Below, piece by piece: positions 48,933-64,000 of a DNA stretch of 64,000 nt (positions are counted from its first letter, which is position 1; the number at the start of each line of letters is the position of its first letter). Source of the DNA: an uncultured Gemmatimonadales bacterium. Lineage in GTDB: Bacteria > Gemmatimonadota > Gemmatimonadetes > Longimicrobiales > RSA9. The notes under the pieces are model-generated. The model was not told the origin of the DNA. It made no database searches and saw only the letters and a program-made list of their open reading frames with translations. The stretch spans positions 480,001-544,000 of the forward strand of contig CAWCUS010000002.1 in assembly GCA_963798845.1 (NCBI GenBank). The letters run 5' to 3'. The translations under genes and the position numbers were made by a program.

Positions 48933-50627
48933 GTGAAGCTCGCAGCGGCGCCAGCCGACGCGGCGCAGGAAAGTATTGCATCCCGGCCCGGCGGAGGTCC
49001 AGAGTCTCGGTCCCGGGTCTGCTTCCGCCCCGCCGACCCGGCTCCACGGCAGGGCGGAGGCGGGGCCCGCTCTGCCGGGGCGCCGGTCCGGGATGGCCCC
49101 GGTCCTGCATGCGCGCCGCCCGAGACGGCGCCGCTCCTGCATCCGCGCCGCCCCGCGCTGGCGCAGCCCTCCTTCCGAGAGGCCTCCCTGAAGCGATTCC
49201 CGAACCCCCTCGTCCTCCTTTTCATCGGCGTGGTCCTGGCCGCGGCCATGACCTGGGTGCTGCCGGCCGGCCGCTACGACCGCCAGGCGGATCCCGCCAC
49301 CGGACGCCAGGTCGTCGTGAGCGGCAGCTACCACGCAGTCGCGCCCGATCCGGTGGGGCCGTTCGAGACCATCGTCGCCCTCCCGCGCGGGATGGAGGCG
49401 GCCGGCGACGTCATCTTCCTCGTGTTCCTGGTGGGCGGCGCGTTCACCGTGATCGACCGGACGGGCGCGTTCCATGGCGGGTTCGACCGGCTGGTGCGTG
49501 TGCTGGGCCGGCACGAGCTGCTGGTCATCCCCATCGCGTGCTACGTTTTCGGCGCGGCGGGCGCGCTCGAGAACATGCAGGAGGAGTTCATCGCGCTGGT
49601 GCCGGTGCTGCTGCTCCTCACCTCCCGGCTCGGCTTCGACACCGTCGTGGCCGTGGCCATCTCCCTGGGCGCCGCGTCCGTCGGCGCCGCCTTCAGCCCC
49701 ATCAACCCGTTCCAGGTCGGGATCGCACAGAAGATCGCGGGCGTCCCGCTGCTCGACCACGCCGCTTTCCGCTCCGCGTTCCTCCTGGTCGCGCTCGCGC
49801 TGTGGAGCTGGGGCACTGCCCGCTACGCACGTCGGACCAGAACCGCCCCGGGCGTCCCGCCCTCCGGGCCCCTCGAGGAAGACGAAGCAGCTTCGCGCGC
49901 TCCGGGCCGGCAGCTCCGCGAGGAGCCCGGTCACGTTCCCGGCGCGGCGGCGTCCACGCCCGGCGTCGCCCCGCACGAGGTCCGGATGACGGGGGCGCAC
50001 GCGCTGATCCTGGCGCTGGCCGTGCTCGCGTTCGGCATCTACGTCGTCGGCGTGATGCGGCTCGACTGGGGCTTCAACGAGATGTCCGCGCTCTTCCTCC
50101 TGCTCGGCGTGGTCGCCGGGCTCGTGGGCCGGCTCGGCGTCAGCGGCACCGCCGAAGCGTTCATCGAAGGCTTCCGGGCCATGGCCTTCGCCGCCATCCT
50201 CATCGGCTTCGCCCGCGCCATCTTCGTCGTGCTCGACGACGGCCGCGTGATCGACACCATCGTCCACGGCCTCTTCCAGCCCATCCAGGGACTCCCGCCC
50301 GCCCTCGCCGCCATCGGCATGGTCGCCGTCCACACCGCCGTCCACGTCCCCGTCCCCAGCGTGAGCGGCCAGGCCGTCCTCACCATGCCCATCCTCGCCC
50401 CCCTCGCCGACCTGCTCGGCCTCTCCCGCGACGTCGCCATCCTCGCCTTCCAGTACGGCGCCGGCATGTGCGAGATCCTCACCCCCACCAACGGCGCCCT
50501 CATGGCCGTCCTCGCGGCGGCGGGCGTGCGCTACGAGCGCTGGCTCGCCTTCGCGCTCCGGATGTGGGCCATGCTCGTGGCGCTCGGGATCGCGTCCATC
50601 CTGGTCGGGATCTGGATCGGGATGTAG
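48933..50627 (+). CDS. YfcC/DcuC-like transporter (true start probably about 49190)
   Basis: FPNPLVLL, TWVLPAGRYDR, PINPFQVGIAQ, VPSVSGQAVLTMPILAPL, PTNG. Confidence 0.88.
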   Translation: MKLAAAPADAAQESIASRPGGGPESRSRVCFRPADPAPRQGGGGARSAGAPVRDGPGPACAPPETAPLLHPRRPALAQPSFREASLKRFPNPLVLLFIGVVLAAAMTWVLPAGRYDRQADPATGRQVVVSGSYHAVAPDPVGPFETIVALPRGMEAAGDVIFLVFLVGGAFTVIDRTGAFHGGFDRLVRVLGRHELLVIPIACYVFGAAGALENMQEEFIALVPVLLLLTSRLGFDTVVAVAISLGAASVGAAFSPINPFQVGIAQKIAGVPLLDHAAFRSAFLLVALALWSWGTARYARRTRTAPGVPPSGPLEEDEAASRAPGRQLREEPGHVPGAAASTPGVAPHEVRMTGAHALILALAVLAFGIYVVGVMRLDWGFNEMSALFLLLGVVAGLVGRLGVSGTAEAFIEGFRAMAFAAILIGFARAIFVVLDDGRVIDTIVHGLFQPIQGLPPALAAIGMVAVHTAVHVPVPSVSGQAVLTMPILAPLADLLGLSRDVAILAFQYGAGMCEILTPTNGALMAVLAAAGVRYERWLAFALRMWAMLVALGIASILVGIWIGM

Positions 50628-50703
50628 GGGCGGCAACCGGCGACTTCGTATGTCGGCCCATCCCGGCATGGCCATGCCCGGGCCTCCGACTCAGAGTTGC
50701 CCC

Positions 50704-51783
50704 ATGACGGACGCCGTGCGGGTCACGGACGCGGCAACGCGGATCGAAGTCCGGTTCCCCTACGACGCGGAGCTGGTCGGCCACATCCGCTCGATACCGG
50801 GCCGGCGCTGGGACCCGGGCCGATCGGCGTGGCTGCTCCCGCGCACCGAGGACGCCCTCAACGCGCTGCTCCGGGCGCCCGACGCGAGCTTCCGCGTCGA
50901 CCGCGGTCTCATGCACCTGGTCCGCGTCCCGTTCCGCCGGGGCAGCGGAACCGATCCGGCGGCGGCGCTCCTCCAGCGCCTCTCGGAAGAGCTCCGGCTC
51001 CAGGGATACAGTCCGCGCACGCGGAAGAACTACGTCGGCCACGTCCGTCGGTTCTTCGGAGCTTTCCCGAAGGCCGCGACCGAGCTGTCGACGGAGCACG
51101 TCCGCGCTCACCTGCTCCGCCTCCAGGCCGACGACCGCTCCGTCTCCTACCAGCACCAGGCGATCAGCGCCATCCAGTTCGCGGCCCGGCTCGTCGATCG
51201 GCCGCTCGCGCTGGAGCCGATCCGCCGCCCGAAGCGGGAGCGCCAGCTCCCCGCCGTTCTCTCACGCGAGGAAGTGCGCCGCATCCTCAATGCCCCCGCC
51301 AACCCGACCCACCGGCTGGCCCTGATGCTCGCGTACTCCGCCGGACTCCGCGTCGGCGAGGTCGTACGCCTCAGCGCCGGCGACGTGGATTCCGGGCGAG
51401 GGCTGATCCGGGTCCGCGCCGGGAAGGGAAGGAAGGACCGCTATACGCTGCTGGCCGATGCCGCGGCCGCCGCCCTCGACCCCGTCCTCGCCCGCCTCGA
51501 CGCCGACGCCTGGATCTTCCCCGGTGCCCGCCCCGGCCGCCACCTGACGACACGCTCCGTGCAGAAGACCTTCGAGCGCGCCCTGGTCCGGTCCGGCGTA
51601 CGCAAGCACGCCACCGTGCACACGCTCCGCCACAGCTTCGCCACCCACCTCCTCGAGGCCGGCGTCAACCTCCGCTACATCCAGGAGCTCCTCGGCCACA
51701 CGAGCCCCCGCACCACCCAGATATACACCCACGTCAGCCGCGGCGATCTTACCCGGATCGTGAACCCGCTCGACGCAGCGTGA
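50704..51783 (+). CDS. Integron-type tyrosine recombinase with an N-terminal HARP-like domain, SAM-like domain and no IntI I2 insertion
   Basis: Catalytic R (GLRVGE), K (GKGRKDR), HTLRH, LGH, Y (IYTH); YSPRTRKNY SAM-like region; N-terminal FPYDAELVGHIRSIPGRRWDPGRSAW. Confidence 0.9.
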   Translation: MTDAVRVTDAATRIEVRFPYDAELVGHIRSIPGRRWDPGRSAWLLPRTEDALNALLRAPDASFRVDRGLMHLVRVPFRRGSGTDPAAALLQRLSEELRLQGYSPRTRKNYVGHVRRFFGAFPKAATELSTEHVRAHLLRLQADDRSVSYQHQAISAIQFAARLVDRPLALEPIRRPKRERQLPAVLSREEVRRILNAPANPTHRLALMLAYSAGLRVGEVVRLSAGDVDSGRGLIRVRAGKGRKDRYTLLADAAAAALDPVLARLDADAWIFPGARPGRHLTTRSVQKTFERALVRSGVRKHATVHTLRHSFATHLLEAGVNLRYIQELLGHTSPRTTQIYTHVSRGDLTRIVNPLDAA

Positions 51784-51983
51784 GGGGGAAGCGGCCGTCG
51801 GCCGCTCGAATCAGCCCCGTGCAAACGGCCGTGCTGAGCCCCTGTACAAGGTCATTGCTTCTGAACAAGAATGGCCCCAAATAGAGATGATTCGGGTCAG
51901 GCGGCCGGGGTGGGTGGCTCCGACAATCTGATAAGGACCTTTCCCGAACGACCGGCGCAAACATCCGGCCCGCCGACATCCTA

Positions 51984-52016
51984 CCGAACACGAGTTCGGT
52001 AACGCAGTAGTTAAGT
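51984..52016 (+). other. attI-like primary recombination site, crossover G/TT at 52010/52011
   Basis: CCGAAC-ACGA-GTTCGG then TAAC-GCAGTA-GTTA; GTTAAGTGC (52010) is the exact complement of GCACTTAAC (52186) ending cassette 1; no attC body upstream. Confidence 0.75.
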
Positions 52017-52187
52017 GCCATGCGCGCAACGGATCATTCGGGCGGGTACTGTGCTCGCCAGCGGCTGGTTCAGGAAAGCTCCAGGCCTCGAGCTGAGCTA
52101 AGATTGCCCCGCCCCGCCCGGGGAGGGCTAGGGGGGAGAGGCCCAGCAGCTAGAACGAAAGGGAAGACAGGGCAAGGCGCGCACAGC
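52011..52187 (+). other. Cassette 1 body: gene-less or small-ORF structured cassette (divergent family member)
   Basis: No RBS-led ORF; shares ends and internal motifs with cassettes 2, 4 and 10. Confidence 0.7.
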
Positions 52188-52337
52188 ACTTAACACACGG
52201 TTGCCGCCTCCGCTCGCTTCGCGAGCTCCGGAGTACCCGGCGGATTAGCGAACGGAGTTCGGGAAGTATCCGGACGGGGGAGGGGAAACGAGCAATCGAG
52301 GGGGCGGACGCCGGGTCGCCCACCTGAAACGTTAGCC
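52188..52337 (+). repeat. attC-like site 1
   Basis: ACTTAAC...GGTTGCCG...CGCCCACC...GTTAGCC, 150 bp; L stem has two mismatches. Confidence 0.85.
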
Positions 52338-52502
52338 GCCATGCGCGCGGAGGAGGCTCTTGGGTGTTGCGCCCGAAATCGGCCGAGCAGGAAAGGGAAG
52401 AGCTTCGTTCTGAGGATTGGCTGCCCCACCCCACCCAAGAGGCCCAGATTCGTGAAGGGCTTGGAGCTTTGGTTTGCGAGGGCAGGGCAGGGCGCACACA
52501 GC
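52332..52502 (+). other. Cassette 2 body: gene-less structured cassette, copy A
   Basis: Nearly identical to 53401-53571 and 60537-60707. Confidence 0.85.
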
Positions 52503-52654
52503 GGCTAACAACACGGTTGCCGCCTGCGCTCGCTGCGCTCGCTCCGGAGAACCCGGCGGATTAGCGAACTCGTGTTCGGAAAAGCGGCGGTGGATTGAAG
52601 CTACTGTGCACTCGGATCGCTGGACCGCCGGGTCGGCAACCGGAAACGTTATGC
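52503..52654 (+). repeat. attC-like site 2
   Basis: GGCTAAC...CGGTTGCCG/CGGCAACCG...GTTATGC, 152 bp. Confidence 0.9.
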
Positions 52655-52670
52655 GGCATCCGCTTCAGAG

Positions 52671-52940
52671 CTACAGGCGCTTCAAGAGTTGGTCATAGTC
52701 GGCGTGTGAGCCGATCCAGAACCAGATCCAGTCATCGTCGGCGCGGCGGGCCAAGGCTCTGTAGTGGAGCGATATGCGGGCTGAGAAGATCGGCTCGGTC
52801 GCGTGAACCTGCTTGAACTGCAGGCTCGGATGAGCCGGATTGGCGGAGAAGAGGTCGAAGGCCTCGCGAGCCCGCTCCTGGACGTCGGTAGGAAGTGAGG
52901 AATAGGCCTTCCGAAAAGATGAAGTGGTGCGGGAGGTCAA
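52671..52940 (-). CDS. RelE/ParE-superfamily toxin (cassette 3, antisense to the array)
   Basis: FRKAYSSLP...HPSLQFKQV...WFWIGSHADYD; start overlaps the antitoxin stop. Confidence 0.82.
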   Translation of the reverse strand: MTSRTTSSFRKAYSSLPTDVQERAREAFDLFSANPAHPSLQFKQVHATEPIFSARISLHYRALARRADDDWIWFWIGSHADYDQLLKRL

Positions 52941-53155
52941 AGCTTGGACGGGTCGAGGTTTTCCGTCTCACCTCGTGCGTCTTCGGCGAGGGCTTCGTTC
53001 GCGAGCTTCGCCAAGTCGTCCTGGGAGTTTTCAAAGGTCCGATCCCAGTTTCGATCGGACTCGAGCTCCTCCAGGAGTAGAGCGGCGATGGCGTCCTGCT
53101 GCTCGCTGGGGAGCTTGGACGCTTCGTCGAAAGCCTTCTTGAGTAGTTCGGTCAT
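52937..53155 (-). CDS. Putative antitoxin (cassette 3)
   Basis: Acidic 72-aa MTELLKKAFDEASKLPSEQQDAIA...; AAGGAGG RBS. Confidence 0.8.
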   Translation of the reverse strand: MTELLKKAFDEASKLPSEQQDAIAALLLEELESDRNWDRTFENSQDDLAKLANEALAEDARGETENLDPSKL

Positions 53156-53173
53156 GAGATCCTCCTTGGCCGG

Positions 53174-53203
53174 ATGATACCCAGGAGGGGATCGGCAGTT
53201 CAA
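53174..53203 (-). promoter_or_regulatory. Cassette-internal promoter of the TA operon
   Basis: TTGAAC-N18-TATCAT on the minus strand just upstream of the antitoxin RBS. Confidence 0.6.
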
Positions 53204-53250
53204 GAGCGAGAGGCGGTTTGCGGAGCGAAAGGCCTGGATTTGCGGACACC

Positions 53251-53406
53251 GCATAACAAACGGTTGGCGCCTGCGGTCGCTTCGCTCCCTCCGGAGAACC
53301 CCGCGATCAAGATCGTGGCGCCGGTCGAAGGGGCGGGGCAGTTTCGAAGGATGCTGCGCCGGGAAAAGCAGTGGCAGGCGGGGTCGCCAACCTGGAAACG
53401 TTAGCC
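53251..53406 (+). repeat. attC-like site 3
   Basis: GCATAAC...GGTTGGCG/CGCCAACC...GTTAGCC, 156 bp. Confidence 0.9.
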
Positions 53407-53571
53407 GCCATGCGCGCGGAGGAGGCTCTTGGGTGTTGCGCCCGAAATCGGCGGAGCAGGAAAGGGAAGAGCTTCGTTCTGAGGATTGGCTGCCCCACCC
53501 CACCCAAGAGGCCCAGATTTGTGAAGGGCTTGGAGCTTTGGTTTGCGAGGGCAGGGCAGGGCGCACACAGC
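53401..53571 (+). other. Cassette 4 body: gene-less structured cassette, copy B
   Basis: Two substitutions relative to copy A. Confidence 0.85.
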
Positions 53572-53679
53572 GGCTAACAACACGGTTGCCGCCTGCGCTC
53601 GCTGCGCTCGCTCCGGAGAACCCGGCGGATTAGCGAACTCGTGTTCGGAAAAGCGGCGGTGGATGAAGAAACGTTAAGC
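53572..53679 (+). repeat. attC-like site 4, internally deleted (right arm missing)
   Basis: Matches site 2 up to GGTGGAT, then GAAG joins directly to AAACGTTAAGC; 108 bp versus 152 bp. Confidence 0.85.
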
Positions 53680-53712
53680 GCAATTGACGCAGCGTACTCG
53701 AAGGGAGGCTGG

Positions 53713-54714
53713 ATGAGGCTGTCCAGCAGAACGATCAGTGATCTTGCCGAACTGATCTGCGGTGCTAGCGGTGGCGGTGGCGGCTATGACTGGTCACACT
53801 TCCCATACAGATCCAGCTCCCGTCTCACCGAATTCTTCAGGAACTGCGACCTTGATTACGTTCATCAAGGTGAGACTAGGAAGTGGTGGGTCGAAGAGGT
53901 CCTTACGGAGCTCAACAAAGCACCTGCCTCCACTCCCCACCTCCCACCGGGCGGCATCATTCGAGTGCTCCAGGAGCTGCTGGACCCGCTGGACTATAAA
54001 CGGGCCGAACTAGATCAGTCCGCGGCGCTGAAGGACCTAAACGCGGTCGTCTCTCGGGATGGTTTGGAGGTTTACCTCGACGGGTCGCGTCGCGCGCATG
54101 TGAGGAATCGCGACACTGAGGCGACCTCTGCCAACCTTAAAATCCAGTCCCGCCCTCTGACCAAGGAAGAGTTGGAGAAGAGACGCAAGGCTGAGGAATT
54201 TCTCGAGAAAGCTTCGGAAGACGAGATAATCGAGGAGCTGCTTGTACCGTTGTTTCGACAGTTGAATTTTCTGCGAGTGAGTCCGACAGGGCACCGGGAC
54301 AGATCGCTGGAGTTCGGCAAGGACTTGTGGATGAAGTTCCAGCTGCCGACCGGTCACTTCATCTACTTCGGCGCTCAAGTCAAGCGAGACAAGATCGACG
54401 CCGCTGGAAGGGATGTCACCAAGAATATCAGCGGTATCATCGCCCAAGCAGAGATGATGCTAGACCACCCGGTTTTCGACCCAGAGAGCAACCGCAAGCA
54501 TCTCCTTGACCACGTCTTCATCATTTCAGGCGGGGAAATAACGAAGCAAGCGAGATCACTGATCGTGGAGAACCTGGACCGAGAGGCGCGCCGACATCTG
54601 ATCTTCATGGATCGAGACGAACTTCTTGATCTGGTGGTCCTTACGGGCACACGGATACCTGAAGAGGAAGCTGAGGCTGCGAGTTCGCCGATCGATGATG
54701 ACCTGCCATTCTAG
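53713..54714 (+). CDS. Cassette 5: PD-(D/E)xK (Mrr/restriction endonuclease-like) protein with an AbiJ-like N-terminal region
   Basis: GGGAGG RBS; YRSSSRLTEFF N-terminal motif; EFGKDL...AQVKR nuclease-like motif. Confidence 0.7.
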   Translation: MRLSSRTISDLAELICGASGGGGGYDWSHFPYRSSSRLTEFFRNCDLDYVHQGETRKWWVEEVLTELNKAPASTPHLPPGGIIRVLQELLDPLDYKRAELDQSAALKDLNAVVSRDGLEVYLDGSRRAHVRNRDTEATSANLKIQSRPLTKEELEKRRKAEEFLEKASEDEIIEELLVPLFRQLNFLRVSPTGHRDRSLEFGKDLWMKFQLPTGHFIYFGAQVKRDKIDAAGRDVTKNISGIIAQAEMMLDHPVFDPESNRKHLLDHVFIISGGEITKQARSLIVENLDREARRHLIFMDRDELLDLVVLTGTRIPEEEAEAASSPIDDDLPF

Positions 54715-54744
54715 GCGGGTGGACAGTGAAGGGGCGTCAACTGC

Positions 54745-54893
54745 GCTTAACAAACGGTTGGCGCCTGCGCGGCCTGCGGCCGCTCCGGAGAACCCGCCGC
54801 GGCCGTGTTGAAGCTGGTGAGAGGATCGCAGTTTCGAAGGTGATGCGCACTGGAGGTTGTGGCGCGGCGGGTCGCCAACCTGGAACGTTATCT
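54745..54893 (+). repeat. attC-like site 5
   Basis: GCTTAAC...GGTTGGCG/CGCCAACC...GTTATCT, 149 bp. Confidence 0.9.
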
Positions 54894-55286
54894 GCAATTG
54901 GCTCAACGACTGAGGGAGGGTGAATGGACCTCAAGCGCGTCCTCGAAGAAATCTCTGATCATCTCGCGCCGAAGCTGGACACCTATGAGCACGCCCTCTA
55001 CACGTACCTGTTCCGCAACACGGTGCTGCGAGGAGAACCAGAGGCTGTAATCGGCTTCAAATCTGCGCGCCACGAGTTGCCGAGGGGAATCGGGACCGCA
55101 GGAACGGCAATGGCCGAGGGGACATGCTATGAGAAGCTCAGGTCCTTAGAAGCCAAGGGCTGCATCAAGGTGTTGGGTACAGAACGGCAAGGAACGCGGG
55201 TGCGGCTGTTCTTGCCGAGTGATATTGTGGGTTCTCTGAACTATGTCCGGTTAATTCTCGAAATTCTGGCCGGCCGGGAGCGTGAG

Positions 55287-56062
55287 CTAGGCGGCTTCAG
55301 AGTCCGGGGTCTCCTCCTGTTTGAGATGGCGGGTGCGGTAGGAGCGGCCGCGGAGCACGAAGTGAGTGCCGCGCTCCAGGAGCCGGTCGAGGATCGCCTC
55401 CGCAAGATCGGCATCATGCAGCACCTGACCGAGGGCGGCCAGAGGCTTATTGGTGGTGACGATCATGGGTCGGTGCCTGAGGTAGCGGTCGTTGACCACC
55501 CGGTAGAGCACGTTGGCGGCATCGGCGGCATAGCTCTGATAGCCGAGCTCGTCGATGATCAGGACGTGGGGGTGGACGTAGGGTTCGAGCGCCTCGTCCA
55601 GCCGTCCCTCAGTGGCCGCGTTGGAGAGGGCGCCGATCAGCTCATCCGCGGTGGTGAATCGGGCCTCGAATCCGTTCTGGATCGCTCGGTAGCCGATGGC
55701 TACCCCCATGTGGGTCTTCCCTCGACCCGGCGGGCCGCTGAAATGGCGCACCGGCCTTCGCTCACCAGCTCCGGCCCCAGCAGCGTGCCGAGCATCTGGA
55801 GGCGGACGCTGGTCTGGAAGGTGAAGTCGAATTCCTCAATGGTGCGGAGGAAGGGGAAGCGGGCCTTGCGGACGGACCGGGTGATCCGGGTCTGCGCCCG
55901 GTGAGCGATCTCCTCGGCCACCAGCAGCTCGAGGAAGGTGCGGTAGCTCATGCCCTCCTCCTCGGCCCGGATCGCCAGGTCCGGATACAGGCGCCGGATG
56001 GTCGGCATGTGGAGGCGCTTGAGCATGGCGTCGAGGTCGTCCAGCGGCACCGGAGTCTTCAT
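55287..56062 (-). CDS. istB: IS21 helper ATPase, frameshifted at about 55742
   Basis: ARFPFLRTIEEFDF then GPPGRGKT, IIDELGY, AILDRLL in another frame; one T missing from a short T run. Confidence 0.88.
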
Positions 56063-57468
56063 GAGGCCACCTCCTTCGCCGCCAGCCCGATCACGTACTC
56101 AGCTCCGATCAGCCGCTGGAAGAGCGCGCGCTGGAGCAGGCGGAGGAAGCGCTCCTGGCCGAGCTCCTCGAGCAGGGCGAAGAGGCGCTCCACGTCTCCT
56201 TTCCATGTGTGGGGTCGGGCGTGGATGAGCTCCGTCAGGTAGCCCTCTCCTACGGGCCCCAGCTCCAGGATTCGCTCCCGCATGAAGTAGAGGCGCTTCC
56301 GTGCACCGGCCACGGCCGCCAGCTGCTCGGCCCGCTGGCCGGGCAGGTAGCTGGTGTTTCCGATCTTTGGAAACCTGGGGTGGGTGGCCTCGAAGCGGGC
56401 GCCGGTGGTGACGATCCGGAGCCGGTCCGGGTACAGGTGGAGCGTGGCCGGGATCCCGCACGCACCCGCCGGCATGGCGTAGCGCACGCCCTGGAAGTCC
56501 ACGAGCGCGGTGGGTCCCACGTGGACAGCGTAACGCAGACCGTACTCGGCCGGCGGGATGGCCAGCGGCTTCATCCGCGCCTGCTCTGCGGTCAGCCGGA
56601 TCTTGGGGATCTCCTTCGTGGCCCGGGATGGCCGCTCCTCATTCCCCCCGATCAGCCAGTCCAGGAGCTGACGGGGGAGGTCCTGGTCGAGCTCAGCGAA
56701 GCGGCGGGCCCGGAAGAAGCTCCGCTTCACCCACCCCACCAGATTCTCCACCGATCCCTTCTGCTGCGGGCTCCTGGGCGTGCACAGCCCGATCGTGAAG
56801 CCATAGTCGATGGCGACCTGGGCCAGCGTGGAATTCCAGATCGGCCGGCCCCGGTCGTCGCGGCCCACCACCACCGTCTTCGGATTGTCGAAGACCACCC
56901 GGAGCGGCACCCCGCCCGAATGCTCGAAGCCGGCCAGGAGTGCCCGGACGAGTGACTCGATCCGCTCGTCCGGCACGATCACCACCCACACCCACCGCGA
57001 GTACTTCAGACGGTACGCCGCGAAGTGAACTCGCTTCTTCCGTCCATCCAGCAGCCGGACGTCGGCCTGACCGAAATCGAACTGGGCGAACTCCCCGGCC
57101 ACCCCCTCGAACCGCACCATCAGCTCCGCCGGCAGCTTCCCCTTCTCCAACCGGAAGACCCGGTAGAAGGTGCTCTCCGCCAGCTCCGCCCCCTCCTCCC
57201 GAAGCTGACGCAGGTATTCCAGGGGTGGAGCCTCGGGATCCTCCGCGATCAGATCCACCAGCCGGCGCTTCACCGCCTCCGGCACCGCGGGACGCCCGAT
57301 CCCCCGGCGCTTCCTCTCCGCCGCATCGTCTCCCTCCGCCACCGGCGGCTCCTTCGAGATCCGACGGACAGACCGCTCCGAGATCCCCAGCTGCCTCGCG
57401 ATTTCCGTCTGCTTCTGCCCCGCCTCCAGCAGCGCATGCACCGCATGTCGATCGATCACCCTGAGCAT
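56059..57468 (-). CDS. istA: IS21 transposase
   Basis: N-terminal HTH, RFEGVAGEFAQFDFG, FDNPKTVV, KGSVEN. Confidence 0.93.
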   Translation of the reverse strand: MLRVIDRHAVHALLEAGQKQTEIARQLGISERSVRRISKEPPVAEGDDAAERKRRGIGRPAVPEAVKRRLVDLIAEDPEAPPLEYLRQLREEGAELAESTFYRVFRLEKGKLPAELMVRFEGVAGEFAQFDFGQADVRLLDGRKKRVHFAAYRLKYSRWVWVVIVPDERIESLVRALLAGFEHSGGVPLRVVFDNPKTVVVGRDDRGRPIWNSTLAQVAIDYGFTIGLCTPRSPQQKGSVENLVGWVKRSFFRARRFAELDQDLPRQLLDWLIGGNEERPSRATKEIPKIRLTAEQARMKPLAIPPAEYGLRYAVHVGPTALVDFQGVRYAMPAGACGIPATLHLYPDRLRIVTTGARFEATHPRFPKIGNTSYLPGQRAEQLAAVAGARKRLYFMRERILELGPVGEGYLTELIHARPHTWKGDVERLFALLEELGQERFLRLLQRALFQRLIGAEYVIGLAAKEVAS

Positions 57469-58021
57469 CCTCCCCCGCCTCCATCTGACAGGAACTCCAT
57501 CCTGCCCGGGACGGGACTACAGTATTCTACGGAGGCTCCTCAGCCGGCCAGATTTTCGAGAGATCAGCGGTCAGAATTCGGGGAACTCACAGATATCGAC
57601 GGCGTCGTCCCAGTTGTTGGGGAAGAGCAGCGGCCCCGCCTAGAAGATCTGGACTTTTTCAATAATGCCTCAAATCGCGAGGCTATCCTGCGGCGAGAGG
57701 ATGGCCGCTGCTTCTATTGCCTTCGGCAGGTTGATGGATCGAATCATGTGATCGAACACCTTACGGCACGGCGGGAGGGAGGCAACGGATACACCAACGT
57801 GGTCGCCGCCTGTCGAGAGTGTAACAATAGGAAGGGGGCAGGCAGTCCTGAGGACCATCTTCGGCGGCTCTATAGGAGTGGTCTCCTGAACGCCGACGAA
57901 ATGGAAGGTCGTTTGGCCGCCCTTGATCTGGTCAGGACGGGCCAGCTAAAGCCGACGCTCGCGGATTTTGAGGATGCGGAGGTTGCCTAGGCGAGTGGAC
58001 CTCGGACGGGGAGCCAACTGC

Positions 58022-58172
58022 AGATGACAAACGGTTGGCGCCTGCGCGGCCTGCGGCCGCTCCGGAGAACCCGCCGCGACCGTGCCGAAGCTGGTGAGGT
58101 GTTCGCAGTTTCGAAGGTGATCGCGCGCCTGAGGTTGTGGCGCGGCGGGTCGCCAACCTGGAAACGTTAGAC
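58022..58172 (+). repeat. attC-like site 6 (R'' AAC changed to GAC)
   Basis: AGATGAC...GGTTGGCG/CGCCAACC...GTTAGAC, 151 bp. Confidence 0.88.
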
Positions 58173-58200
58173 GGCATTCCTTTGGAGCGGGAAAGGTCTG

Positions 58201-59297
58201 ATGGCGGATTCTGACCAGCTCGATCTCGAAGCTGCTATTGAGGAAGCCGAAGAAGCTGACCTCGAGAAAGAGCGTGATGCAGTTCTTGCCGCGGTGTCAG
58301 CCAGCCGGCTGGATACGCTGCAAAAGAGGGTTGCATGGGTTCTGAACCATTACCCGGATGCCAGAGATTCCGATGTTGCTCTGTACATACGTTATTGGCG
58401 TGAGTTTGAAGGCGAGCATGTCGAAGGGGAGTACGTCAAGCTCAAGAACATTACCGTCTGACTCGGCCGGCGTCGCTTACCCGAGCCCGAGCCAAGCTTC
58501 AGAACGAGTACAGGTTATTCCTGGCGAGTGACGAAGTCAGAAAACACCGCGGAACACTGTCGGAGGAGGAAAAGGAAAAGGCGGTTAGTCAAAGGCCCAC
58601 GTTCCCAATGTACACGGCCTATGCCGATGAGAGCGGAAAGACCGACAACTTCTTAGTGGTTGGAGCCGTTTGGTTTCTGAACGGTCCGGAGATCATCGAG
58701 GTGACCCAAGAGGTGGAGAGGCTTGCCAAGGCGCGCGGCATTTCCGCCGAACTCCACTTCAGAGAGATCGACTACTCTACGTTGGACTTCTACAAGGAAG
58801 TGGCTGCGTTGGTACTGGCTCGTTCAGCAACCATTTCATTCACTTCGATCAGCGTCGAGCGAAGAGGCCACAAGCGAGTGGACGATGCCATTGCTAACCT
58901 GTATGAGCATCTGCTTCTCCGAGGGGTGGAGTACCACGACTCCACGAACAGAGCGCCACTGCCACGGAGCCTTAGCGTCTTCAAGGATCGCGAAGAAGTA
59001 GGCCGAGACAAGCTACTGATGGCGAATCTCGAAGAGTCGCTCAGACAGGCGAGTGAGGCGCGGCTGGAGGGAAAGCTGTACGTCGACAGGCTGGCGGCCG
59101 TTGACTCCGAGGAGAACATCCCGGTTCAGCTTGGCGATCTGTACACCAGCAGCGTCGCCAGAGTCTTGAACGCCACGGGCAAGCGCAACTCAGCACGAGA
59201 TGATTTCGCGGATTTCTTCTTAGGAGAGCTGGGGATCCCCAATGGTCCAGCCGCGGAAGAGCGGGTGGGGGACATGGTGGCTCACGTGGCCTTGTGA
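58201..59297 (+). CDS. Cassette 7: DUF3800-like (RNase H-fold) protein with an N-terminal extension, frameshift at about 58450
   Basis: YADESGK, ELHF, VQLGDLY motifs; 58201-58461 joins the 58608 frame via YRLTRPASLTRARAKLQNEY. Confidence 0.75.
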
Positions 59298-59318
59298 TAT
59301 CCCTCATGGAGGAACGCC

Positions 59319-59469
59319 GTCTAACAAACGGTTGGCGCCTGCGCGGCCTGCGGCCGCTCCGGAGAACCCGCCGCGGCGGCTTGGAAGCTGGTGAGGTTCG
59401 TGTGATTTCGAAGGTGATCATGCGCTGGAGATAGTGGCGCGGCGGGTCGCCAACCTGGAAACGTTAGGC
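59319..59469 (+). repeat. attC-like site 7
   Basis: GTCTAAC...GGTTGGCG/CGCCAACC...GTTAGGC, 151 bp. Confidence 0.9.
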
Positions 59470-59496
59470 GCCACGCTCTACGAGAGGAGGCGGATC

Positions 59497-59951
59497 ATGT
59501 ACTGTGATGTCGTTCGAGCGCTGGTTGTTGCGGGCGTACTGATTGGCAGCACCGCCTGTTTAAGTACTAGCGCCGTCGATTCGCCCGTCGAAGTTGGCGT
59601 TGACATCGATAAACATCAGTCAGCGTCGGAGACACGGTGGTGTTCACCACAGCCGTCCACAACCCCACGGATCGGCGAATTCAAGTCGGAGTGGAATGCG
59701 GGCCCAGCCTAGACGTTCAGCTTCGGAGGCCCGACGGTTCAAGCCTTTCGGTGTTGAGCCGCATTGTCGGAGGTGGTGCGTTCACGTGCGAATTGGCGGA
59801 ACACCATTTCGCCGATCCCGGAGAAACGGAACGGCTGACGCTTCGGTGGAAGGCTGAAGCTCCGAGAGGGACGTACTTGGCCGTTGCTCAAACCAGGTGC
59901 GGGGAGGACCAGTGTCCCACGAGCGACCCCGTGACTTTTGTCGTGAAGTAG
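59497..59951 (+). CDS. Cassette 8: putative lipoprotein with an Ig-like domain, frameshift at about 59612
   Basis: AGGAGG RBS, lipobox-like STAC; adding one A to the AAA run gives DKTSVSVGDTVVFT... Confidence 0.65.
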
Positions 59952-59972
59952 GTGATATGGCGCTCGCGCAGC

Positions 59973-60128
59973 GCCTAACAAACGGCTGGCGCCTCCGCGG
60001 ACTGCGGCCGCTCCGGAGAAACCCGGCGCGACCGTTTCTGAGCAGTCGAAGGCTCGTGTAGTTTCGAAGGCTGTGGAGCTGGTGAGTTCATGGTGAGCGC
60101 CGGGTTCGCCAGCCTGGAAACGTTAAGC
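59973..60128 (+). repeat. attC-like site 8
   Basis: GCCTAAC...GGCTGGCG/CGCCAGCC...GTTAAGC, 156 bp. Confidence 0.9.
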
Positions 60129-60158
60129 GCCAGAGCCCGCAATCTGGAGGAGGCAATA

Positions 60159-60398
60159 TTGACTCGTCGCGAACTGTCGCAGACCGGATGCCGAAACGTC
60201 TTGGCGCTGATGGGGATTGCCTCGTTGGGCTTGTTAACGATAGGCCTGACAGGATTCGATTCTTTCGACACCGGGTGGATCAGGTAGGGGCTGCGCGCGG
60301 TCTGGACAGGGGGGATGGCCGTGGCCGTTTGGACAATCGGTCGTGCGGCCCGGAAGGCGATCGAACTGCTTGAGGACGTGGCCAGCTCCGGCGCTTAA
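60159..60398 (+). CDS. Cassette 9: small membrane protein, apparently frameshifted (in-frame stop at 60287)
   Basis: GGAGGAGG RBS before TTG; one TM segment; a second frame MAVAVWTIGRAARKAIELLEDVASSGA ends at the TAA inside R''. Confidence 0.45.
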
Positions 60399-60542
60399 CA
60401 CACGGCCGCCGCCTTCGCTCGCTGCGCGAGCTCCGGAGAACCCGGCGTCAAGCGCACCGCCCTCGAGGAGAGCATTGAACCACTGGTAGACAGGCGGTAT
60501 GGAGGGATGTGCCGCCGGGTCGGCGGCCTAGAAACGTTAGCC
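60393..60542 (+). repeat. attC-like site 9
   Basis: GCTTAAC...GGCCGCCG/CGGCGGCC...GTTAGCC, 150 bp. Confidence 0.9.
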
Positions 60543-60707
60543 GCCATGCGCGCGGAGGAGGCTCTTGGGTGTTGCGCCCGAAATCGGCCGAGCAGAAAAG
60601 GGAAGAGCTTCGTTCTGAGGATTGGCTGCCCCACCCCACCCAAGAGGCCCAGATTCGTGAAGGGCTTGGAGCTTTGGTTTGCGAGGGCAGGGCAGGGCGC
60701 ACACAGC
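60537..60707 (+). other. Cassette 10 body: gene-less structured cassette, copy C
   Basis: One substitution relative to copy A. Confidence 0.85.
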
Positions 60708-60859
60708 GGCTAACAACACGGTTGCCGCCTGCGCTCGCTGCGCTCGCTCCGGAGAACCCGGCGGATTAGCGAACTCGTGTTCGGAAAAGCGGCGGTGGAT
60801 TGAAGCTACTGTGCACTCGGATCGCTGGACCGCCGGGTCGGCAACCGGAAACGTTAACC
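60708..60859 (+). repeat. attC-like site 10
   Basis: Same body as site 2, ends GTTAACC, 152 bp. Confidence 0.9.
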
Positions 60860-60925
60860 GCCATGTTCCACTCGGCGTTTCTGTAGCAGATTAGGAGCAA
60901 GGGACTTCAGGGAAGGAGCTTGCGG

Positions 60926-61150
60926 ATGTCGAGTGTACCAATCGAGGAACTGCTCAAGCTGTCGGTCGCTGAGCGGATTCAGTTGGTGGAGGACCTGTGG
61001 GACAGCATCGCTACGGACGCGGACGCCTATCCATTAACTGAGGCCCAGAAGGCGGAACTGGACCGTAGGCTGGCAGAACATGAAGCGGACCCGGATTCTG
61101 CTATTCCCTGGGAGGAAGTCCGGGAGCGGTTGTACAAGAAGTACGGGTGA
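60926..61150 (+). CDS. Cassette 11: addiction-module antitoxin (TIGR02574-like)
   Basis: LSVAERIQLVEDLWDSI...LTEAQKAELDRRL...IPWEEV. Confidence 0.9.
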   Translation: MSSVPIEELLKLSVAERIQLVEDLWDSIATDADAYPLTEAQKAELDRRLAEHEADPDSAIPWEEVRERLYKKYG

Positions 61151-61443
61151 GCCGCCGCTTCGTTGTTCGCCCTGCGGCCGACGCCGAACTCGAGGAAGCC
61201 GCAGCGTGGTATTCGGAGCGTTCCTTGGGCTTGGGAGCGGAATTCGTCCGCGTCATCGATGCGGCTTTCTCAGCGATCCAGCGGAATCCTCTCCGATTTC
61301 CCATTCTGTATCGGGATGTCCGGAGGGCCGTTGTTCGGCGATTCCCATATGCCATTCTCTTCAGAGCGAGCGCGGAAGAGATCGTGGTACTCTCCGTTTT
61401 CCATTCCCGCCGCGATCCGAAGCGTTGGCAGGCCCGGAGGTGA
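61147..61443 (+). CDS. Cassette 11: ParE/RelE-family toxin
   Basis: PAADAELEEAAAWY...GLGAEF...RRFPYAI...VFHSRRDP; GTGA overlap with the antitoxin. Confidence 0.9.
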   Translation: MSRRFVVRPAADAELEEAAAWYSERSLGLGAEFVRVIDAAFSAIQRNPLRFPILYRDVRRAVVRRFPYAILFRASAEEIVVLSVFHSRRDPKRWQARR

Positions 61444-61535
61444 CGTCCGCCAGGCTGCGGGCAGAATGTCAATGCCGGACGAAAACAGCACAGATGTGGC
61501 GCTCGAAAATGCCACACTCGAGGGGGGACGAGCCC

Positions 61536-62375
61536 TCAGGTTGTCGTAGCCTCCAGACGGGCACGTCGCCGTGGTTTGGGTGAAGGCTCTTCCTCCAGGT
61601 CGGGGGTGTGGAGCGCCTGCCAGACCTCGGAGTGCCGACGAAGGCGATAGCTGTTGCCCCGGATGTTGACAATGTGGCAATGGTGAAGCAGCCGGTCGAT
61701 CAGCGCCGCGGCCATGACTTCATCGCCGAAGATGGCGCCCCATTCTTCAAAGCTCTTGTTCGAGGTCAGGACCGTCGACGCCCGCTCATAGCGCCGGTTC
61801 ACGAGCTGGAAGAAGAGCATGGCTCCGGTGTGGCTGACCGGGAGGTAGCCGATCTCGTCCACCACCAGGAGCGAGGGGTGGCTCAGGACGCTCATCCGTT
61901 GCTTGAGCATGCCCGCCGCTTTGGCTTCCTCGAGAGACGAGATCAGATCTGCCAGGGTCCCGTAGTAGACGCGACGCCCGTGCTCGGCGGCGGCGATGGC
62001 GAGGCTGATGGCCAGGTGCGTTTTCCCGACTCCAGGAGGGCCGAGGAAGATCACGTTCTCCTTTCGCTCAATGAAGCCGAGTTCGTGGAGGCTCTCAATC
62101 TGCTCTCGCTTGATCGAGGGCTGGAATGAGAAATCGAAATCGGTGAGCAGCTTCACCGCCGGAAGCCGGCTCGAGCGCATGGCGGCCTGCAGACGTCGGT
62201 TGTTGCGGAGTTGGATCTGAGCTCCGAGGAGCTGCTCGATAGCCTCGCTTGGCGTGACCTCGCCACCATCGACGGCGGAAAGAATGGAGTCCAGGGCCTC
62301 CAGGGCCCCCGGCATCTTCAGGTCGGCCAGCATGGACCGGATGTGATCACGACGGGACACCTTGGCCCCTCTCAT
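61536..62375 (-). CDS. istB: IS21 helper ATPase
   Basis: DFDFSFQPSI, GPPGVGKTHLA, VVDEIGY, LIDRLLHH, GNSYR. Confidence 0.93.
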   Translation of the reverse strand: MRGAKVSRRDHIRSMLADLKMPGALEALDSILSAVDGGEVTPSEAIEQLLGAQIQLRNNRRLQAAMRSSRLPAVKLLTDFDFSFQPSIKREQIESLHELGFIERKENVIFLGPPGVGKTHLAISLAIAAAEHGRRVYYGTLADLISSLEEAKAAGMLKQRMSVLSHPSLLVVDEIGYLPVSHTGAMLFFQLVNRRYERASTVLTSNKSFEEWGAIFGDEVMAAALIDRLLHHCHIVNIRGNSYRLRRHSEVWQALHTPDLEEEPSPKPRRRARLEATTT

Positions 62376-63406
62376 TGGCCACCTGCCGCGATGCGGGCGT
62401 AGGTGGAGAGCGAGCGGCGCTGCACCGCAATCGCGGGGAGGAGCGACCGATCTCTCACCTCCTGCTTGCGCTCCATGGGGATGACCAGCGAGCGGTAGGA
62501 CCGCTCGGCCAGCGGAAGGAGGTGCTCCCGCTCCCTCTCGAAGCGCGCCACCGGCTGTTCCTTTGTGGTGCCGTGGATCCGGACGTTCGCCGTTTTCTCC
62601 AGCCACTGCTCGAGGCGAGCGTCCAGATCCTCGTCCCCGACAAACTCGCGGCCGTAGACGAAATTGCGGCGCACGTAGCTCACCGGCCGCTCGACCTTGC
62701 CTTTCGTCCGGGCTCGATAGGCTCTACAGGCGCGGATGTCGAAGCCCCAGTGAGCAGCGAAGCGCAGAAACTCCTCGTTCTTCAGGAGCTCACCTCCTTC
62801 CAGCCGCCGATCGTCCAGGATCACGTTCTTGAGCTGGTCGAAGAGGAGGTGCTGCGGTACTCCACCGAAGAAGCGGAAGGCCGCTTCCAGCCCCTCGTAC
62901 AGCGCCCCCGTGGTCTTCCGCGGGAAGTAGCGCACCCAGAGGAGTCTGGAGAAGCCGAGCACGACCAGAAGCGCATACCGCTTGCCCCACGGAAATCTGA
63001 AGTCCGCGAAGTCCACCTGAGCCTGCCGGCCCGGCGGAGTCTCGAAGCGGATCACCGGCTCCTCCGGCAATCGAGGGCGGACCTGCCTCACGTACACCTT
63101 CACCTGCGTGTAGCCCCCGTCGTAGCCGGCGGCCTTCACCTCCTCGAAGAGCCGCACGGCCGAGAGTTCCGGATACTCCTTCAGCCGCTGTCCGATGATC
63201 GCCTTGTACGGCTCGAGCTTCCACGGCACCGCAGGCCGCGGCCCGTACCGCACCGGGTCCTGATCCAGATCCCGGTCCAACTGGCCCCTCCGGATCCACC
63301 GATAGATCGTGGTCCGATCGACGCCGAGCATCTCGGCAATGGCCGCCTTCGGCAGCCCCTGCTCGAGGTAGTGTCGCAACAGCACACGCTGCTCCCTTCC
63401 ATGCAT
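62372..63406 (-). CDS. istA: IS21 transposase
   Basis: HTH, RFETPPGRQAQVDF, LFDQLK, TKGKVERP. Confidence 0.93.
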   Translation of the reverse strand: MHGREQRVLLRHYLEQGLPKAAIAEMLGVDRTTIYRWIRRGQLDRDLDQDPVRYGPRPAVPWKLEPYKAIIGQRLKEYPELSAVRLFEEVKAAGYDGGYTQVKVYVRQVRPRLPEEPVIRFETPPGRQAQVDFADFRFPWGKRYALLVVLGFSRLLWVRYFPRKTTGALYEGLEAAFRFFGGVPQHLLFDQLKNVILDDRRLEGGELLKNEEFLRFAAHWGFDIRACRAYRARTKGKVERPVSYVRRNFVYGREFVGDEDLDARLEQWLEKTANVRIHGTTKEQPVARFEREREHLLPLAERSYRSLVIPMERKQEVRDRSLLPAIAVQRRSLSTYARIAAGGQ

Positions 63407-63560
63407 GGCGCCTCCACGGTGGGCGTGAAGACGCCAAGGTGGGATCGGAGCCGCACCTCCTGCGAGAGCTTCAGCGCGGCTCAGGGACGATCAGCGAGTG
63501 TCGCATTTTCGCCCGCCACATTCTGTGGAATTTTCGGCCGCCGCTAACACAGAACACGGC

Positions 63561-63711
63561 GGTTAACAAACGGTTGGCGCCTGCGCGGCCTGCGGCCGCT
63601 CCGGAGAACCCGCCGCGACCGTGTTGAAGCTGGTGAGGCTGCCGCTGTTTCGAAGGTGATCGCGTGCTAGAGGTATCGGCGCGGCGGGTCGCCAACCTGG
63701 AGACGTTAGCC
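63561..63711 (+). repeat. attC-like site 11
   Basis: GGTTAAC...GGTTGGCG/CGCCAACC...GTTAGCC, 151 bp. Confidence 0.9.
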
Positions 63712-63740
63712 GCCATTGGGCCCGGAGAGGAAGGAACACG

Positions 63741-64000
63741 GTGCTACCGCAAGACACAGCGCAGGTAACAGCGCCATTGTCATGGATGGATTGGGCAGGG
63801 GGCGTTGAGAGCGTGCTGACCAGTTTGGCGATCGTGATCGGAGCAGTATGGACCTACTTCAAGTTCTTCCGTGGCCGCACCTTTCATGAGCGCCTTGGAG
63901 CCAGCGTGTCCGCATCTCGCAGAGACGCTGTGGGAATGCAATTCCTTGACGCCAGGGTGACGGTAGCCAATGTAGGGTTGTCGAAGGTTCCCCTCGTGCA
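63741..64000 (+). CDS. Cassette 12: hypothetical membrane-anchored protein, 3'-partial
   Basis: Purine-rich RBS then GTG; MLPQDTAQ...LAIVIGAVWTYFKFFRGR..., open to the window end. Confidence 0.65.
   Translation, partial: MLPQDTAQVTAPLSWMDWAGGVESVLTSLAIVIGAVWTYFKFFRGRTFHERLGASVSASRRDAVGMQFLDARVTVANVGLSKVPLV

Follow-up and report, generated by a model that had tools for sequence, protein, structure and literature searches.

An invariant mispair within an extended R arm in the cassettes of an integron-like array from Gemmatimonadota

Why would the two ends of a gene cassette pair with each other well past the recombination core and clash at one and the same position in every cassette? The question is raised by an integron-like cassette array in a 64,000-nucleotide stretch of DNA (hereafter the window) from an uncultured Gemmatimonadales bacterium (GenBank assembly GCA_963798845.1, contig CAWCUS010000002.1, positions 480,001 to 544,000). 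The array lies on the + strand of the window and holds 11 complete cassettes there, which start with GTT, end in AAC (GAC in one case) and alternate with repeats of about 140–150 nt (repeat start ...TAAC A(A/C)ACGG, repeat end ...GGAAAC GTTA). A preliminary description of the same DNA had reported extended terminal inverted repeats with an A/C mismatch at position 11 of every cassette, and had proposed that the mismatch is either a strand-selection determinant outside the classical attC or a trace of how cassettes are made.

The observation at the core of that description held. The ends of all 11 cassettes pair beyond the 7-bp R box, reaching position 14–19 when mismatches are counted, and at position 11 a left-end A faces a right-end C in 11/11 (the C reads as G when the right end is reverse-complemented). 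Six cassettes (1, 2, 3, 4, 8 and 10) have C/A at position 10, again as had been stated. All mismatches in the window stems are transitions that produce G.T when the bottom strand pairs and A.C when the top strand does. The tally itself had to be amended: the 11 cassettes are complete, but cassettes 2, 4 and 10 are identical, leaving only nine distinct ones, and the right end of cassette 6 is GAC rather than AAC. The complete cassettes and the start of a twelfth are as follows.

Cassette 1: 52010..52194, + strand; A11 at 52020, C11 at 52184; position 10 also C/A.
Cassette 2: 52331..52509, + strand; identical to cassettes 4 and 10; A11 at 52341, C11 at 52499; positions 10 and 14 also C/A.
Cassette 3: 52648..53257, + strand; ParE-like toxin gene on the minus strand; A11 at 52658, C11 at 53247; position 10 C/A.
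Cassette 4: 53400..53578, + strand; copy of cassette 2; A11 at 53410, C11 at 53568; position 10 C/A.
Cassette 5: 53673..54751, + strand; 18-bp stem with a single mismatch; A11 at 53683, C11 at 54741.
Cassette 6: 54887..58028, + strand; HNH-endonuclease gene split by an IS21-family element; A11 at 54897, C11 at 58018; right end GAC.
Cassette 7: 58166..59325, + strand; DUF3800 gene; A11 at 58176, C11 at 59315.
Cassette 8: 59463..59979, + strand; A11 at 59473, C11 at 59969; position 10 C/A.
Cassette 9: 60122..60399, + strand; A11 at 60132, C11 at 60389.
Cassette 10: 60536..60714, + strand; copy of cassette 2; A11 at 60546, C11 at 60704; position 10 C/A.
Cassette 11: 60853..63567, + strand; antitoxin and ParE toxin pair, then an inserted IS21-family element; A11 at 60863, C11 at 63557.
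Cassette 12 (start): 63705..64000, + strand; A11 at 63715; right end outside the window at C2:544471 (contig coordinates); hybrid, with positions 5–7 mismatched and 12–19 paired.

What are these end repeats? The identical cassettes 2, 4 and 10 have a common sequence that runs from within GAAACGTTA on the left up to the next GAAACGTTA on the right. This shared boundary indicates that the mobile unit begins at GTT, as in integrons, where the crossover falls at G|TT. The bases after GTT would therefore belong to the cassette and be joined to the end of its own attC in the excised circle. Together with the cassette-specific covariation described below, these boundaries show, at the level of sequence comparison, that the "terminal inverted repeats" of a cassette are the two halves of its own attC R arm, parted by integration at G|TT. 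When each cassette's own ends were rejoined in silico, the predicted bottom-strand fold was 4.1–15.5 kcal/mol more stable than that of the in-array site in all 11 cases.

We built a covariance model from nine window sites and used it to search 61 related genomes, the source genome (G000) included. Sites of this attC type were found in 13 of the 61. The arrays of seven relatives and the short locus of an eighth (G030) yielded 75 distinct cassettes with both ends defined. Those with at least 8/9 matches at positions 1–9 were treated as intact, which gave 53 distinct cassettes from 8 genomes; the other 22 (array-end remnants, hybrids and cassettes next to a degenerate site) were left out of the per-position counts that follow.

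Positions 1–4: GTTA, nearly invariant.
Position 8: left-end G in 52/53.
Position 10: paired in 39/53.
Position 11: paired in 0/53; A left and C right throughout.
Positions 12–15: paired in 47–50/53 (89–94%).
Position 16: paired in 38/53.
Position 17: paired in 23/53.
Position 20: paired in 10/53.

Positions 12–16 vary in sequence, with 32 distinct 5-mers among the 53 intact cassettes, so the pairing there is covariation. Cognate ends matched at 4.40 of these 5 positions and non-cognate ends at 2.03, and none of 10,000 shuffles of the right ends attained the observed match sum. At positions 5–7 and 9, a left end matched its own right end at 3.81 of 4 positions vs 1.56 for non-cognate ends. A compensatory change was also seen directly, at position 9 of an orthologous toxin-antitoxin cassette that is C:G in the source genome and G:C in G005. 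When the degenerate and hybrid cassettes were included, A11 was present in 72/75 and its partner G11 (right-end reverse complement) in 64/75. G010, the ninth genome, carries beside a homologous recombinase a diverged form of the site, with a score of only about 20 bits against the model; its cassettes have A/C at position 11 in 9/9 (8 distinct), stems of up to 21–22 bp and, in 6/9, a further clash at position 10 (A/A on top, T.T on the bottom strand). The position-11 pattern is real, highly non-random and conserved in at least nine genomes.

Three of the excluded hybrid cassettes (window 63705 onward with L124:471; L115:5775-6296; L113 minus strand 12617-13611) have 2–3 mismatches at positions 5–7 and retain A/C at 11 and a paired outer arm at 12–16 or further. 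A G|TT crossover could not produce such hybrids; they may stem from several mutations, or from an occasional crossover or conversion whose boundary fell between positions 7 and 8.

For comparison with canonical integrons we used 80 loci with integrases bearing the IntI-specific segment and six more, 86 in all, from delta-proteobacterial, Acidobacteriota, Eisenbacteria, Pseudohongiellaceae, Polyangiaceae and Vibrio records. Canonical arrays were found by clustering the conserved flanks of AAC and GTT, with the right-end register set on positions 1–7 only. Thirteen of the 86 loci passed this array detector, and in seven arrays a perfect 7-bp R box was present in three or more distinct cassettes, for a total of 54. 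Flank clustering replaced a generic attC finder that relied on AAC...GTT pairs plus fold energy, missed known sites and gave noise; a loose genome-wide scan for GTT...AAC pairs returned thousands of chance pairs in the 70% G+C source genome and was not used. Sequence flanking the canonical intI genes of G001 and G000, tried as a same-genus control, was unsuitable for that purpose, with no cassette array of the window type and only two isolated short attC-like elements. The pairing in the seven arrays was as follows.

L145: pairing ends at 9 bp; 11/11 paired at position 9, 0/11 at position 10.
L136: cassette-specific pairing ends at 9 bp.
L156: cassette-specific pairing ends at 8–9 bp.
L073: cassette-specific pairing ends at 8–10 bp.
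L187 and L195: cassette-specific pairing ends at about 12 bp.
L169: irregular, 3 cassettes only; 3/3 paired at position 11, 0/3 at positions 15–16.

In none of the 54 canonical cassettes do at least 4/5 pairs follow a position-11 mismatch; the tabulation of homologous and canonical arrays that the preliminary description had called for thus found its pattern not to be equally common in IntI arrays. Canonical stems pair perfectly for 8–12 bp, occasionally 14, and then end. Three cassettes of Vibrio atypicus (L035), aligned by eye, pair for 11 bp, for 9 bp (then a mismatch and 3 more) and for 14 bp. Sedentary canonical IntI arrays therefore resemble the window array in pairing beyond 7 bp and differ from it in that the pairing is perfect and then stops. 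R-arm pairing beyond 7 bp is, in these alignments, general in integron cassettes, with a lineage-specific length and a sharp end, and is seemingly undescribed: the literature we covered, which did not extend to subscription journals, described neither a longer R arm nor complementarity of cassette ends outside the core site. Across the sequences compared, a fixed mispair with further helix beyond it is special to arrays of the window type and a lineage-specific variant. The earlier placement of the feature outside the classical attC calls for qualification: it extends the R box outward without a break, and canonical arrays also exceed 7 bp. What is special is the fixed mismatch with 4–5 bp more behind it. 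Two further observations on the canonical loci are that the first unpaired position in L145 is A on the left in most cassettes, and that the array lies downstream of intI in most of them (L145, L156, L187 and L195).

The window sites share much with the canonical attC, or 59-base element: AAC/GTT triplets, the G|TT crossover, the outer R' bases at the cassette 5' end, and an imperfect hairpin with a spacer and an 8-bp L-box helix. Cassette-specific R'/R'' complementarity is classical for the 7-bp R box, which is given as 5'-RYYYAAC-3' in the passages of Nivina et al. (2020, PMC7439510) that we drew on. All 11 window sites have an inverse core AAC at the 5' side and a core GTT at the 3' side; among them, one begins with GAC and another carries a 3'-half deletion. 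They differ from canonical sites in that the arm extends to 15–16 bp (up to 21) with an invariant T.G/A.C at 11. The canonical 7-bp form (RYYYAAC / GTTRRRY) is not followed: the arm pairs to 15–16, and positions 5–7 are not RRY (e.g. GTTATCT). The predicted attC fold is a three-way junction made of an 8-bp L-type helix, a conserved side hairpin and a main stem, and compensatory double changes in 12 of 28 predicted pairs back its helices by covariation. The L helix is predicted to lack the bulged base of canonical sites; in the predicted folds the asymmetry sits in the spacer instead (4 vs 7 nt).

If the arm differs from that of canonical integrons, is the enzyme also different? The gene next to the array is:

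Tyrosine recombinase: 50704..51783, + strand; N-terminal HARP-like domain (about residues 1–80), SAM-like core-binding domain, and catalytic domain without the IntI-specific insert.

The best-scoring model for this protein is TIGR02249 (IntI), at 204 bits and below the cut-off of 265. The match is split between model positions 1–179 and 235–314; positions 180–234, the IntI-specific insert with the I2 helix region, are unmatched, and 14 residues span the gap. The Xer models score nearly as well and also fall under their cut-offs (XerA 195 vs 220, XerC 173 vs 335, XerD 163 vs 330). In a quick maximum-likelihood tree of 32 sequences, a small sample with Xer outgroups on long branches, 16 array-type recombinases parted from 14 canonical IntI (support 99, branch length 1.22), and the window recombinase fell on the Xer side of the long branch. 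There are further parallels with Xer/dif, in that both the attI and the R''-L'' half-site resemble a pair of inverted arms round a 6–8 bp centre. Xer-type enzymes bind an arm of about 11 bp or more. Unlike a Xer enzyme, the window enzyme lies beside a cassette array and has an extra N-terminal domain, and its R arm comes about when variable sequence pairs within a single strand. An insert described as "not fully conserved" in an integron-like subgroup is mentioned in the portion of Smyshlyaev et al. (2021, PMC8138268) that we used.

Homologues at 47–90% identity adjoin homologous arrays in the same orientation in G001, G036, G032 and G005, so that, with the source genome, an insert-less recombinase, an attI and an array are adjacent and co-oriented in five genomes of different genera. 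IntI scoring over the cut-off is absent from four of five array-bearing relatives (G036, G032, G033 and G013), whose arrays contain duplicated cassettes; among them, G032 is a single-contig genome with more than 20 sites. The window recombinase and its homologues at L111, L114, L115, L121 and L216, insert-less and with the N-terminal domain, are conserved beside arrays in several genera without canonical IntI.

The N-terminal domain that comes with the missing insert takes up about the first 80 residues. Pfam HARP (PF07443) matches it weakly in 25 of 42 homologues. A profile of 16 such domains searched against Protein Data Bank sequences had one match with E < 1, the HARP domain of SMARCAL1 (4o66; E 4.6e-4). 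The structure model of the domain is confident (predicted local distance difference test, pLDDT, 92.8), and a Foldseek search with it placed 4o66 at the top (probability 0.93, E 0.034), followed by the N-terminal domain of XPB; the weak matches further down include MutS mismatch-binding domains. These matches lie below the level of a safe fold match, yet they agree on a class of small domains, HARP/UvsW-N/XPB damage-recognition domain (DRD), that the window domain resembles in the model. HARP, UvsW-N and XPB damage-recognition domains occur on enzymes that act on forks, bubbles and branched or distorted DNA. The likeness to SMARCAL1 HARP, the T4 UvsW N-terminal domain and the archaeal XPB damage-recognition domain comes from weak profile and fold matches, and the setting differs, since those domains sit on helicases and the window domain is fused to a tyrosine recombinase. 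Neither integron-like arrays with Xer-like recombinases nor HARP-tyrosine recombinase fusions were found described in the literature, subscription journals not being covered.

The N-terminal profile matches 16 of the 61 related genomes (the unpublished G016 and G017 included). Seven of these 16 are among the 13 genomes with attC of the window type, and the eighth, G010, has the diverged array, which was found only without filters. In four others (G007, G025, G051 and G026) the contig ends about 0.6–2.9 kb from the start of the gene. G028 has a gene matching the profile and no array in 11 kb. The loci of more distant homologues from other phyla (L001–L080) gave no convincing array and lend no weight in either direction: L010 and L011, which match only past the N-terminal domain, have no repeat array, and L001 has only about 1 kb of downstream flank. 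The recombinase beside the array of G013 is another split match.

How might mispair, arm and enzyme work together? A crossover at G|TT would leave the outer half-arm (TTAnnn...) at the cassette's 5' end and its partner (...nnnTAAC) before the attC at the 3' end. The halves would abut in the excised circle, and the folded single strand would form a stem outward from the crossover: 10 bp, one invariant non-Watson-Crick position, then 4–5 or more bp (arm 15–16 bp, up to 21). Position 11, separated from the scissile bond by ten bases (roughly one turn of the helix), is T.G when the bottom strand folds and A.C when the top strand does; in about one cassette in four, position 10 is unpaired as well. 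The mispair and the end of the stem, a single-strand/double-strand junction, may together be a structural mark read by the array's own recombinase, plausibly through the N-terminal HARP/UvsW-N/XPB-DRD-class domain in place of the IntI insert. Such a mark would identify the recombinogenic (bottom) strand and set the binding register. Within the array, an attC joins a cassette's right end to the next cassette's left end, and only GTTA, G8 and the T.G are common there. The full arm exists only in the free circle, and this should favour integration of free cassettes over excision.

This mark would act like the extrahelical bases of canonical attC, whose reading by IntI was reportedly described by MacDonald and colleagues in 2006. 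The reader there is the IntI-specific I2 helix, according to the parts of Escudero et al. (2016, PMC4792948) that we consulted. Canonical and window sites are alike in having unpaired or mispaired bottom-strand T and G for strand selectivity, which in the window arrays is the proposed function. They differ in placement: canonical extrahelical bases lie between or within the R and L boxes, on the inner side of the crossover, and the T.G would lie on its outer side, 10 bases from cleavage.

We put the probability that the mispair and the arm of defined length are read by the insert-less recombinase as a mark of strand and register at roughly 0.55. A broader reading of the same comparisons is more tentative, and we would sooner bet against it than for it: that Longimicrobiales-type Gemmatimonadota carry non-IntI integron-like platforms in which the HARP-like domain reads the T.G and the end of the 15–16-bp arm, as a second independent solution to strand-selective, hairpin-specific recombination at defined sites.

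Several observations weigh against reading of the mispair by the adjacent recombinase. Six genomes with attC of the window type have no match to the N-terminal profile (G012, G013, G019, G020, G030 and G033), although several of these are fragments. L005, from another phylum and with a match that includes the N-terminal region, has no repeat array within 10 kb downstream. The identity of the bottom strand as the recombined strand is an assumption of the analysis, made by analogy to canonical integrons. The R''-side spacer TAAC AAAC G resembles the Vibrio repeat, which we take, together with gene orientation, as a clue to the strand; the Pfam-supported cassette genes are on the + strand in three cassettes and on the minus strand in one. 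Taken whole, the reconstituted attC favours the bottom strand in only 4/11 window cassettes. The A at position 11 is followed by T in 40/53 intact cassettes, with G at position 13 in 28/53, and a sequence-level constraint on the left end alone is possible. Finally, canonical integrases are at hand in two genomes. G001 has two intact copies over the cut-off, and the source genome has a canonical intI (L126/L127) at C2:1322-2267, 530 kb from the array and frameshifted; in these two genomes canonical IntI could be acting in trans on the cassettes. The frameshifted gene, located right at the beginning of the contig, bears the IntI-specific segment and is split near ...GKGGHDRI.... Neither genome was found to have an attC of the array's type near its canonical intI.

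A mismatch of this kind might bias strand choice through thermodynamics alone, G.T being tolerated and A.C not, with no protein reading it. The R-arm duplex does favour the bottom strand in 50/53 cassettes, by a mean of 1.54 kcal/mol (T.G vs the top-strand A.C), and 9 of the 14 position-10 mismatches among intact cassettes are also of a type that gives G.T or T.G on that strand. The energy difference is small, however, and the 4/11 count for whole sites speaks against such a bias; energy alone would be a weak explanation of the mismatch. Either orientation and any nearby position would serve a thermodynamic bias, yet one orientation, T on the arm that is cleaved and G facing it, is found in 53/53, which fits protein reading better than generic destabilisation. 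Nor is the position-10 mismatch of G010 (A.A on top, T.T on the bottom strand, in 6/9) strand-asymmetric in the same way. We therefore consider a purely thermodynamic bias unlikely. The strand-selection determinant of the preliminary description is backed by the T.G/A.C asymmetry, its single orientation, its absence from the 54 canonical cassettes and the bottom-favoured arm, and is weakened by the modest mean and the behaviour of whole sites. A11 and C11 might instead be held by independent constraints, such as recombinase contacts with duplex arms or expression signals, with the mismatch as a by-product. The persistence of A11 and G11 even in degenerate and hybrid cassettes would suit this, as would the frequencies of T12 (40/53) and G8 (52/53) and the open reading frames of cassettes 1 and 2 (57 and 55 codons), which start at an ATG formed by positions 11–13. 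Elsewhere, however, positions 11–13 are ATT, ATC, ACG or AGA and real genes begin further in, so A11 is not a general start codon. Covariation of the flanks (9 and 12–16) between the two ends is sensible only if the arms pair, and a forced clash within paired arms is then the feature itself. Independent constraints are, in our judgement, about as doubtful an account as thermodynamics.

The second proposal of the preliminary description, a trace of how cassettes are made, would have a templated hairpin bequeath the mismatch, for example through an RNA intermediate in which G.U is legitimate. The mismatch is indeed G.U-compatible on one strand, and we know of no mechanism for the acquisition of attC sites. 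That strand, though, is antisense to most cassette genes, and a scan of window positions 50000–64000 against Rfam matched no family, group II introns included. More tellingly, position and orientation are invariant across unrelated contents and diverged attC families, and the neighbouring positions are kept paired by compensatory change, which argues for ongoing selection rather than the decay of a relic. The proposal found no support, and we regard it as very improbable. A last alternative is that these are ordinary cassettes handled in trans by canonical IntI, the adjacent recombinase being unrelated and the extended arm a quirk of the lineage that nothing reads. The integrase genes of G000 and G001 described above would allow this, and canonical arrays too have R-arm lengths (8–12 bp) specific to their lineages. 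But arrays with duplicated cassettes occur in G036, G032, G033 and G013 with no IntI over the cut-off, the insert-less recombinase lies beside and co-oriented with the array in five genomes of different genera, and no array of the window attC type lies beside the canonical intI of G001 or G000. We think this explanation improbable.

The array and its surroundings have other features in keeping with an integron-like layout. A 227-bp spacer separates the recombinase gene from the array and closes with an attI-like junction:

attI-like junction: 51984..52016, + strand; palindrome CCGAACACGAGTTCGG, TAAC, 6-nt spacer GCAGTA, then GTTAAGT, the start of cassette 1.

The layout (G/T)AAC GCAGTA GTTA is also found in G001 and G005. 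The palindrome CCGAACACGAGTTCGG (51984-51999) recurs inverted as GCGAACTCGTGTTCGG in the variable region of attC 2 (52561-52580), 4 and 10, and this recurrence could be an accessory binding site or a remnant. The 11 repeat sites in the window, each running from the AAC of R'' to the GTT of R', are:

attC 1: 52192..52333, + strand; 121 bits.
attC 2: 52507..52650, + strand; covariance-model site.
attC 3: 53255..53402, + strand; covariance-model site.
attC 4: 53576..53675, + strand; 3' half (L' side and part of the variable region) deleted, GAAACGTTA kept; 52 bits.
attC 5: 54749..54889, + strand; covariance-model site.
attC 6: 58026..58168, + strand; begins with GAC.
attC 7: 59323..59465, + strand; covariance-model site.
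attC 8: 59977..60124, + strand; covariance-model site.
attC 9: 60397..60538, + strand; covariance-model site.
attC 10: 60712..60855, + strand; covariance-model site.
attC 11: 63565..63707, + strand; 164 bits.

The truncation of attC 4 has probably immobilised the cassette upstream of it. Beyond the window the array continues to about C2:552,633 with six further sites, and contig C5 also has a cluster of two.

The cassette contents are typical of sedentary integrons: toxin-antitoxin genes, HNH and DUF3800 genes, short cassettes without a recognisable gene, and two IS21-family insertions. The 179-bp cassette present three times (52331-52509, 53400-53578 and 60536-60714) has a diverged relative in cassette 1 (52010-52194). 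In this family the ATG at positions 11–13 opens a reading frame of 57 or 55 codons that ends with the TAA of the right-end TAAC; the 55–57-codon frames of cassettes 1, 2, 4 and 10 had no Pfam match. The IS21-family elements (istA/istB, minus strand) lie at about 55240-57560 in cassette 6 and about 61460-63545 in cassette 11, and the first of them has an apparently truncated or frameshifted istB, a fragment of 120 aa. The antitoxin/ParE cassette (window 60853-61450; L125, L111, L112, L113 and L121) occupies varied array positions in G000 (twice), G001 (twice), G036 and G005, a distribution that points to cassette exchange between genera.

Integron recombination is a model for structure-specific, strand-selective recombination of single-stranded DNA, and its rules, a 7-bp R box and extrahelical bases that the IntI insert reads, come from a few proteobacterial systems. 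In every array tabulated here, the outer arm carried by the cassette is selected for pairing well past 7 bp, with lengths specific to the lineage. In one lineage the arm has gained an invariant mispair and further helix, and the accompanying recombinase is without the canonical reader and has a different extra domain. IntegronFinder (Cury et al. 2016) is said to require the IntI insert, and arrays such as these would probably be classed as integrase-less attC clusters. If the proposed reading of the mispair is true, cassettes can encode the choice of strand across the crossover from the canonical determinants, and an integron-like system can do without IntI. It may also supply design rules for synthetic structure-specific recombination sites.

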